Notes under the pieces: model-generated | Told to the model about the DNA's origin: nothing | Seen by the model: the letters and a program-made list of their open reading frames with translations, nothing else | Database searches by the model: none | Translations under genes and position numbers: made by a program | Shown: piece by piece, positions 3,319 through 4,253 of the stretch | Position numbering within the stretch: the stretch's first letter is position 1 | Layout: the number at the start of each line of letters is the position of its first letter | Origin: Eledone cirrhosa | Lineage: Eukaryota | DNA: 64,000 nucleotides | Assembly (NCBI GenBank): GCA_964016885.1 | Contig: OZ024742.1 | Location: 231,136,001-231,200,000 of the forward strand | Direction of reading: 5' to 3'

Positions 3319-3710
3319 ATATATATATATATATATATATATATATATATATATAAACATAAGTATGTACACGTACATACATATATGTATACAGACATAC
3401 AGTAGTATGTATATATATATACATACATGCACACACATATATATATAGGTATGGATTTACCGAACATTTATTATAATGCTCGTATTAAGCCGCAGTGTCA
3501 AGCAACCATAGTTGCTCGTTTGTTCAACACTGATATATATATATATATATATATATTGTTATACTTTGGGAGGGTCATGTTGCCAATAAGAAACACACGC
3601 ACCAGTTGCTTTCACTTCAGTTTATTATATATTTATAAATTTACAAATTTATAAATTTATAAATTTCTGGTTGGTTGGTTGGTTCCACAACCAGATAGTT
3701 GTTTATATAT

Positions 3711-3755
3711 AGTCATAGTCCTTTCGTCACACACTCTGTGACCTCTTCAGTGACT
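3711..3755 (-). ncRNA. Minimal type I hammerhead ribozyme (mirror arm)
   Basis: Reverse complement of 3863-3907. Confidence 0.75.
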
Positions 3756-3862
3756 GGGGATTCCTTTCTTTGTTTCTGTGCCTCTCCTTTGTTCTGTCCT
3801 ACGCCATTTTGTTTCTCTTAGGACAGAACAAAGGAGGTACAGAAACAAAGAAAGGAATCCCC

Positions 3863-3907
3863 AGTCACTGAAGAGGTCACAGAGTGTGTGACGAAAGGAC
3901 TATGACT
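3863..3907 (+). ncRNA. Minimal type I hammerhead ribozyme
   Basis: agtca-CTGAAGAG-gtcac(agagtgt)gtgac-GAAA-ggac-TA-tgact: stem I agtca/tgact, stem II paired, very short stem III. Confidence 0.75.
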
Positions 3908-4253
3908 ATATATAAACAACTATCTGGTTGTGGAACCAACCAACCAGAAATTTATAAATTTATAAATTTGTAAATTTATAAATATATAATAAACTGAAGT
4001 GAAAGCAACTGGTGCGTGTGTTTCTTATTGGCAATATGACCCTCCCAAAGTATAACAATATCGGTTTCAACACACGATTTCAGATAAAGAATCTTGCTAA
4101 ACAAATTCAGAAACGAAATATATATATATATATATATATATATATATATATATATATATATATAGAGAGAGAGAGAGAGAGAGAGAGAGAGAGAGAGAGA
4201 GAGAGAGAGAGAGAGAGAGATACACGGGTGTGTATGATTGTGTATAGAAGATT

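Follow-up and report, generated by a model that had tools for sequence, protein, structure and literature searches.

The window, by which we mean the whole stretch of 64,000 nt of Eledone cirrhosa DNA that was analysed, contains two large palindromes (3556-4118 and 18739-19304). A sequence-only reading had described both, with a 60-nt extension at one end only and with flanking (TA)n, and our analysis bears out this description. The two hairpins are head-to-head pairs of truncated 3′ ends of an abundant Penelope-like retrotransposon (PLE), inserted in (TA)n, and are composed of the following parts:

3532..3555 (left) and 4119-4165 (right), no strand: (TA)n microsatellite flanking copy 1, the target
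3556..3818, minus strand: copy 1, inverted 5′-truncated arm; its outer end is the internal 3′ site of the element, ...GTATAACAA, without tail
3820..4058, plus strand: copy 1, sense 5′-truncated arm; 3′ part of the PLE unit, approximately positions 3993-4250 of the reference unit, taken from locus L033
4059..4118, plus strand: copy 1, 60-nt tail, TATCGG...CAGAAACGAAA
ca. 18550-18738 and 19305-19340, no strand: (TA)n flanking copy 2, the target
18739..18990, minus strand: copy 2, inverted 5′-truncated arm, tail-less, from the palindrome search and the alignment of the four arms
18993..19244, plus strand: copy 2, sense 5′-truncated arm, identical to its partner in all aligned columns
19245..19304, plus strand: copy 2, 60-nt tail, from reading of the sequence

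Both copies start at their left end with TTGTTATAC..., immediately 3′ of (TA)n, and in both the right arm ends in ...GTATAACAA and is followed by an identical 60-nt extension (4059-4118 and 19245-19304), here called the tail, which terminates in ...CAGAAACGAAA and gives way to (TA)n. The arms of copy 2 (18736-18990 and 18993-19247) have 255 nt each, are 100% complementary and are separated by a gap of 2 nt. Those of copy 1 pair in two blocks, 3553-3680/3934-4061 (128 nt, 99%) and 3672-3784/3834-3946 (113 nt, 99%), and are asymmetric, the tail-less arm extending ca. 18 nt deeper inward than its partner. The presence of copy-specific variants in both arms, also proposed from the sequence, was confirmed by the alignment of the four arms, where 12 substitution columns and 7 gap columns combine agreement within each copy with a difference between copies. 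In the same alignment, 5 substitution and 11 gap columns separate the two arms of copy 1, and none (0 columns) those of copy 2. Contigs assembled from public runs at 3670-3940 were short and repeat-collapsed, and none bridges the centre of copy 1, so they neither confirm nor refute the palindrome.

The family is represented in the window by further insertions, and a motif resembling the core of a hammerhead ribozyme is found in each of the hairpin arms:

2680..2731, plus strand: mini-insertion flanked by (TA)n runs, in which the final 20 nt of the tail, reverse-complemented, adjoin the final 32 nt of the arm (tail-less end)
48046..48113, minus strand: second mini-insertion, of like composition, in which the reverse-complemented final 22 nt of the tail adjoin the final 46 nt of the arm (tail-less end)
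24340..24618, plus strand: 3′ end of a diverged relative, with a CTGATGA...GAAA core and the same ...GTATAACAA end, without tail and abutting (TA)n
3862..3897, plus strand: core resembling that of a hammerhead, within the sense arm of copy 1 (sequence CTGAAGAG), with a 6-bp stem GTCACA/TGTGAC and GAAA, read by eye
3721-3756 (minus strand), 19043-19078 (plus strand) and 18905-18940 (minus strand): mirror copies of the hammerhead-like core, the motif read by eye

The two mini-insertions follow the end rule of the hairpins, with 20-22 nt of inverted tail end joined to 32-46 nt of tail-less arm end. A 24-nt motif from the ends occurs 7 times in the window (with up to 3 mismatches), vs. 0 in 100 shuffles. 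The four insertions of the window (two hairpins and two mini-insertions) are all flanked by (TA)n, which was also found 3′ of the tail at 30 of the first 30 genomic loci of the arm/tail junction.

Canonical PLEs carry a hammerhead ribozyme motif in their pseudo-LTR. By eye, the core in the hairpin arms reads CUGAAGA...GAAA; stem II has 6 bp and is preceded by one extra base, and stem I would have 5 bp (AGUCA/UGACU). A search of the arms with Rfam gave no hammerhead match at E values up to 1 or 10, and the lack of an Rfam-recognised hammerhead sets this family apart from canonical EN+ PLEs. The many matches to microRNA families returned by Rfam for the arms were all below the thresholds of the respective families, correspond to the palindrome itself and were discarded.

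The nature of the element is apparent from a full copy, L033, which contains, in this order, (TA)n, an inverted arm of ca. 190 nt, the 3′ end and tail as a short direct repeat, a unit of 4310 bp and (TA)n. Its arm/tail junctions lie 4310 bp apart, and the short direct repeat upstream of the full unit makes it a partial tandem of the pseudo-LTR type. The tail continues directly into position 1 of a unit in L007, L050, L065, L087 and L103, and in tandem copies the 60-nt tail is the stretch between ...GTATAACAA and position 1 of the next unit. At the other end, the arm extends upstream into coding sequence (L007, L016 and L017). The unit of L033 has an open frame of 1041 codons, whose last 160 residues match the Pfam GIY-YIG domain (E 2.8e-5, 24.8 bits vs. 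a cut-off of 22.6), with a C-X4-C-X2-C motif upstream of the GIY-YIG core. The frame also contains a YVDD motif and a weak match to RVT_1 (E 3.7e-4, 20.7 bits, below the cut-off of 29.6). We found 152 homologues of the deduced protein. The best named one is a hypothetical protein of Octopus vulgaris (70% identity), labelled by one source as containing a reverse transcriptase domain, and another (P0092), which has a Pfam GIY-YIG match, aligns across 800 residues of the L033 protein, including the GIY-YIG region. The element is a PLE because it joins a probable reverse transcriptase (RT) and, at the C terminus, a GIY-YIG domain with tandem units and an inverted 5′-truncated copy. Non-inverted termini and A/T targets had also led us to consider Helitrons and IS200/IS605-like elements, and both readings were dropped because the arms are colinear with the RT/GIY-YIG unit. 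A 39-mer spanning the arm/tail junction has 10,128 matches (5094 + 5034) in the genome of 3.0 Gb, where its reversed control has 0, and the tail-less end followed by (TA)9 has 8,016 (4048 + 3968). The family comprises approximately 10,000 copies.

Much of this architecture is familiar from other PLEs. In the passages of Craig et al. (2021; PMC8557442) that deal with insertions, these are highly 5′-truncated and arranged in partial tandems, often with an inverted 5′-truncated copy at the 5′ end; a tail of 30-40 bp is often present at one end only, and there is a bias to (TA)n; a CX4CXXC motif upstream of GIY-YIG is described there for Neptune and Nematis. The equivalent passages of Arkhipova et al. 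(2013; PMC3846280) present the same structure, with a 31-bp tail, and propose self-priming, possibly on an antisense template, leaving open whether the template is sense or antisense. The literature covered here still calls PLE integration undefined, and there has been debate on the tail, on the inverted repeats and on which polarity the template has (PMC3846280, PMC8557442). The inverted truncated copy, the one-sided tail and the (TA)n bias are thus already published hallmarks of PLEs, and the hairpins of the window are a textbook form of PLE insertion. Compared with the published descriptions, as excerpted, of canonical EN+ PLEs (Penelope/Poseidon, Neptune and Nematis), the family is alike in its pseudo-LTR tandems, frequent 5′ truncation, inverted 5′-truncated copy, extension at one end, AT-rich or (TA)n targets and CX4CXXC motif, but its tail has 60 nt instead of the published 30-40 nt. 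It also differs in that most insertions sampled here, 64 of 86 scorable junctions, are of the inverted form.

This last figure, and the arrangement of the ends, come from the first 100 places at which the junction 39-mer occurs in the genome, all of them in the first 50 Mb of contig C1, which were extracted with flanks of 1.5 kb and compared with the natural unit of L033, with corrections by hand for L006, L019, L028, L038 and L087. The inverted copy is adjacent to the junction in 64 of the 100 places; 22 have no inverted neighbour and the remaining 14 run off the flank, which leaves the 86 scorable junctions. Of the 64 inverted copies, 49 are complete within the locus. The partner end is tail-less, finishing at the ...ACAA site, in 46 of these 49 hairpins, all sampled through their tail-bearing ends, and tails at both ends were present in three (L045/L046, which are one structure, and L078). 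Sampling from the opposite side, with the first 30 places of the tail-less end plus (TA)9, yielded 15 loci with a complete partner, 4 that ran off the flank and 11 without a complete partner; the inverted partner bears a tail in 15 of the 15, many of which had already been sampled from the tail-bearing side. Among the 49 and 15 complete hairpins of the two samples, none had two tail-less ends. Two further loci belong with these exceptions to the one-tail rule: in the complex insertion L007/L008 the two facing arms both end in a tail, although the far right end of the insertion is tail-less, and L065/L066, a nested case, may be another. One end of a hairpin is ...ACAA^TATCGG and the other ...CGAAA^TATCGT (the caret marks the site), 60 nt further along, and the two sites resemble each other (...AACAA^TATCGG and ...AACGAAA^TATCGT).

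The outer ends of the sampled hairpins are thus fixed and their centres variable, as the tabulation of arm end points beyond the window, suggested by the sequence-only reading, has shown. The spacers between the arms of the 49 complete hairpins range from -31 to +40 nt, most being close to 0, and there is no (TA)n between the arms. Of the 49, 17 have a tail-less arm that exceeds its partner by more than 12 nt and 20 a tail-bearing arm that does so, and in 12 the arms are symmetric within 12 nt, vs. a mean of 2.7 and a maximum of 9 symmetric hairpins in 10,000 permutations of the arm lengths. The 5′ ends of the tail-bearing arms lie at unit positions 3976-3993 in 12 of the 86 scorable junctions, and the centres of both copies in the window fall in this same interval.

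Arm-to-arm distances were calculated for 36 hairpins, leaving out gaps. The two arms of a hairpin are nearer each other than to other copies in 32 of the 36 (median 0.036 vs. 0.067, Wilcoxon p 9e-6), although in only 7 of them is the partner the closest of all sequences. The divergence between arms ranges from 0 to 0.136 and comes near between-copy values in old copies, which argues against the proposal, put forward in the sequence-only reading as one of its options, that later homogenisation is the general cause of their likeness. In ordinary copies, the divergence fits arms that would have been identical at insertion and then decayed, and whether one RNA or two RNAs of the same subfamily served as template cannot be told from shared variants by themselves.

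A distinction of this kind is afforded by hairpins with dense, ADAR-like clusters of A>G substitutions. Of the 38 substitutions in L007 and the 37 in the facing arm L008, 34 and 33, respectively, are A>G, in the same pattern, and a 40-mer with these edits occurs just twice in the genome, in these two arms. Five other hairpins have the following numbers of A>G changes, the private ones summed over the two arms:

L040: 29 shared, 3 private
L118: 19 shared, 1 private
L139: 32 shared, 4 private
L128: 7 shared, 1 private
L120: 115 shared, 4 private

In 6 of 6 such hairpins, the same clusters are present on the sense strand of both arms, with 7 to 115 shared changes and 0-2 private ones per arm. The sharing spans 180 to 725 nt, and private substitutions are also present. 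L007/L008 and L040 come from the unbiased sample of 100 junctions; L118, L139, L128 and L120 were obtained with an edited-core pattern (66 matches, of which 30 loci were examined) that demanded A>G on the sense strand, so that four of the six events rest on it. A search of the genome with a fully edited 26-mer matched only L007/L008 and L040. Among the loci retrieved with the pattern, L117, L121-L127, L129-L132, L134-L138 and L140-L142 either showed no A>G excess, defined as 8 or more A>G that account for 45% or more of the substitutions, or had arms that do not overlap the edited stretch; in L124, which passes this threshold (10 of 20), and in L133, which contains an edited stretch, the partner arm lies outside that stretch.

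The sites of change have neighbours of the kind preferred by ADAR enzymes. The edited fraction was 0.41 after T, 0.36 after A, and 0.18 after either C or G, and according to the 3′ neighbour it was 0.47 before G vs. 0.25-0.27 before the other bases (chi-square p 2e-10). Such preferences are known for these enzymes. With a single 30-mer, 11 events with at least 3 A>G were found, and the mirror search with the same 30-mer gave 0 of 34 matches with at least 2 T>C. Straight read-through of a hairpin RNA would mark one arm with A>G and its partner with T>C, a pattern that is absent in the six hairpins; therefore, one edited sense RNA stands behind both arms, and both arms of the hyperedited hairpins descend from a single edited sense RNA molecule. 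The same sense-strand pattern in each arm, in 6 of 6 hyperedited hairpins, upholds the earlier suggestion that the two arms were made from one template at insertion. In L040 and L139, moreover, the tail-less arm has inner sequence that is absent from the tail-bearing arm, and the tail is present in the latter alone. Since each arm holds unique sequence, neither is a plain copy of the other, and most simply both were copied from the RNA itself.

Within the complex insertion of L007, the edits of the inverted arm are common to the upstream direct repeat and not to the 3′ end of the downstream unit, which is tail-less. L119 is an exception, with 18 private T>C in the tail-bearing arm and few edits in its partner; this single case looks like an edited read-through transcript of a hairpin that was itself re-inserted. 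The strand of these edits, together with the ADAR-like neighbours of the fixed A>G sites, lends indirect support to the earlier idea that hairpins, when transcribed, are ADAR substrates. Editing is not uniform along the element: in the 12 arms of the six events, 349 of 841 adenines are edited at unit positions 3985-4169, vs. 2 of 330 from position 4215 to the end. Either this 3′ part at no time formed double-stranded RNA, or copying is confined to RNAs whose 3′ recognition region is intact.

Taking these results together with the architecture of the family, we consider it likely that each hairpin is one PLE insertion in (TA)n, formed by two 5′-truncated 3′ ends head to head, whose arms were both synthesised at integration by reverse transcription of a single sense RNA, each from its own DNA end of the cut target, at start sites 60 nt apart. 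The PLE nuclease would cut both strands of (TA)n, and each target 3′ end would then prime reverse transcription on the same RNA, with one of the two similar start motifs for each end, which is proposed as the reason why there is exactly one tail per hairpin. The two cDNAs would stop at independent points or would both reach the 5′ end of the RNA, the latter giving rise, as proposed, to the symmetric class. Their 3′ ends would finally be joined with an overlap of 0-3 nt, each templating the second strand of the other. Strict exclusivity of the start sites is deduced here from genomic copies, and one start site for each end would fit a dimeric complex on one RNA, such a dimer being predicted by structure modelling (PMC11167929).

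Biochemical data on a PLE agree with several of these steps. The purified Poseidon PLE protein of Anolis cuts and extends both DNA strands, and reverse transcription begins at two adjacent internal sites of the RNA, the tail being the sequence between them (Frangieh et al., 2024; PMC11167929). Both this published in vitro work (PMC11167929) and the rule of one tail per hairpin favour priming from both target strands, one of the possibilities raised in the sequence-only reading. Our family is like Anolis Poseidon in vitro in having two adjacent start sites that bound the tail, in the proposed cutting and extension of both strands and in its AT-rich target. However, Frangieh et al. (2024) found no difference in start site between the two strands in vitro (PMC11167929), either site being used by both, whereas the two ends of a hairpin here almost always correspond to different sites. 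The start motifs also differ, as those of our family share AAC(A/GA)A^TATCG and that of Anolis is an AC-rich stem-loop.

A resemblance in mechanism can also be drawn with LINE-1, and it does not go further than mechanism. In the twin priming of LINE-1, which Ostertag and Kazazian are said to have described in 2001, both target DNA ends reportedly prime on one RNA and generate an inverted segment without duplication, whereas here both cDNAs cover the same stretch of RNA, and the result is a palindrome. The enzymes are also different, an APE nuclease and the L1 RT there and a GIY-YIG nuclease with a presumably TERT-like RT here.

Self-priming, likewise raised in the sequence-only reading as cDNA fold-back, offers another route to a palindrome and is the main rival, though one that we regard as unlikely: a single DNA end would prime on the RNA, at the tail end, and the first-strand cDNA would fold back to act as its own template, the copy ending 60 nt before the start of that cDNA is reached, with unequal arms and mini-insertions resulting from deletion around the unstable centre of the palindrome. 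Molecule-specific edits common to both arms are predicted by this route as well, the excess of symmetric hairpins (12/49) speaks for it, and palindromic PLE junctions are taken as self-priming in the pertinent passages of Arkhipova et al. (2013; PMC3846280). However, the tail-less arm is the longer one in 17/49 hairpins, and the arms of L040 and L139 each have unique sequence, so that an extra deletion would be needed every time; asymmetry is already the rule in the youngest hairpins (5 of 7 with an arm-to-arm divergence of 0.01 or less), and it is not apparent why synthesis should halt exactly at the internal ...ACAA^TATCG motif. A version of this route that starts from an antisense template is disfavoured by the polarity of the A>G changes. 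That the arms derive from different templates or events and became alike afterwards through gene conversion is very improbable. Inverted repeats with a short spacer can undergo conversion, and the closeness of the arms in 32/36 hairpins agrees with it, but a divergence that runs from 0 to 0.136 and nears between-copy values in old copies means that conversion was not sustained; in addition, practically every edit is common to both arms in 6/6 hyperedited hairpins, along 180 to 725 nt, and yet these carry private substitutions. The arms, moreover, meet at internal truncation points, where the spacers measure -31 to +40 nt and (TA)n is absent, which would be unexpected for two separate insertions.

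There is even less to recommend a DNA transposon of the foldback or MITE type, with long terminal inverted repeats and a TA target duplication. Hairpin-forming inverted arms, TA-rich flanks with (TA)n on both sides and internally shortened copies that keep both ends are indeed what foldback elements and long-TIR MITEs have in common with this family. Against this, the termini of such DNA transposons are symmetrical, and those found here are not mutual inverted repeats, one of them having 60 extra nt; the arms are colinear with the 3′ end of a tandem unit that codes for RT and GIY-YIG; the inner end points, and with them the centres, vary from copy to copy in the manner of 5′ truncations; and clusters of A>G on the sense strand require an RNA intermediate, the hairpins being RNA-derived. 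It is scarcely credible, finally, that the hairpins are a fold-back artefact of assembly or library preparation. Palindromes are a known class of artefact, and no public contig extends across the centre of copy 1; nevertheless, there are thousands of cases specific to one family, with fixed outer ends, variable centres and arms that have diverged by up to 13.6%, and the same architecture is published, in the parts of the literature cited above, for PLEs of many animals (PMC8557442, PMC3846280).

Dual priming on a single sense RNA is therefore the reading that we prefer, and one RNA template, one tail per hairpin and the excess of symmetry are the aspects that go beyond the literature covered. 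A literature search, made outside subscription journals, returned no report of hyper-editing common to PLE arms nor of the one-tail rule. We lean, with some reserve, towards a more far-reaching formulation, in which the ADAR edits act as barcodes: both arms would come from the same sense RNA, with the target ends as primers, each obliged to use its own start site, and this would be the footprint of a dimeric integration complex on a single RNA, the unedited last ca. 95 nt marking the segment recognised by the enzyme.

Thousands of insertions of one family, some of which bear editing scars specific to one molecule, amount to a natural barcoding experiment, and these scars make the dual-priming model testable genome-wide without wet work. 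If true, the reading of ADAR barcodes would settle, for PLEs, the alternatives of sense vs. antisense template and of self-priming vs. dual priming. For the host, no function of the hairpins is evident. When transcribed, they would fold into double-stranded RNA, and a PLE family with at least 8,000 hairpin-forming loci bears on the very high load of double-stranded RNA and the hyper-editing that are reported, in the portion of the study concerned with them, for octopus transcriptomes (PMC5625713). In this genome, edited retroelement RNAs have been written back into the germ line.

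In the hairpin L120, A>G changes make up 149 of the 172 substitutions of the long arm, and the two arms have 115 A>G changes in common; the edited stretch is ca. 1 kb long and includes coding region. Editing in the hyperedited copies is not evenly distributed along the family unit: only 2 of 330 adenines are edited in its last positions (4215-4310), a segment comprising the tail and the final ~36 nt of the arm, versus 349 of 841 farther upstream. This near-unedited segment may be the part of the RNA that is required for recognition by the reverse transcriptase. Additionally, unit positions 3976-3993 are a hot spot of 5′ truncation: for the tail-bearing arm, 86 5′ ends could be scored, and 12 of them fall here. 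The edited stretch of L007/L008, L040, and L118, other loci of the family, begins at the same place. The hot spot could correspond to the 5′ end of the RNA or to a strong stop.

G000:C1:42796104-42799133, locus 27-1767: hairpin L120, arms of ~725 and ~1015 nt
Unit positions 4215-4310: near-unedited 3′ segment; window equivalents 4023-4118 and 19209-19304
Unit positions 3976-3993: truncation hot spot, where the two hairpins of the window have their centres (ca. 3810-3825 and ca. 18985-18998)
G000:C6:5098757-5101786, locus 1187-1695: hairpin L119
G000:C1:29029584-29033883: L065/L066, nested or compound structure
L033 locus 3100-4000, minus strand: low-complexity repeats inside the open frame, N-terminal third of the ORF
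Window 24340-24618: diverged family relative bearing a canonical CTGATGA core and the same GTCACA/TGTGAC stem as the family

Hairpin L119 has 18 private T>C changes in the tail-bearing arm, equivalent to A>G on the read-through strand, and almost no edits in the partner arm; it may have arisen by whole re-insertion of a hairpin transcript that had been edited. The apparently nested or compound structure L065/L066 contains an internal inverted segment of 0.9 kb, and both of its outer ends have tails.

The repeats in the ORF of the reference unit, L033, are threonine-rich, and asparagine-rich in another frame, resembling the N-rich inserts reported from the coding regions of rotifer Penelope-like elements (PMC3846280). 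A reverse-transcriptase-like frame (...YIDDCIG...) situated upstream of a truncated family copy (L032 locus 4771-5235) is from a different retroelement, unrelated to the family. Two tRNA-like SINE-type repeats lie side by side at window 2150-2350 (...GGTTCAAATCCCGCCGAGGT... then ...GGGGTCGATAAATAAAGTA...), showing no kinship with the hairpin family.

The diverged relative in the window has a tail-less end, which abuts (TA)n. Comparisons with window 3670-3940 (runs X5 and X6) identified arm sequence, at 90-100% likeness, in contigs of two other organisms. These contigs run on from the arm sequence into the longer element, and the family is thus present in related species as well.
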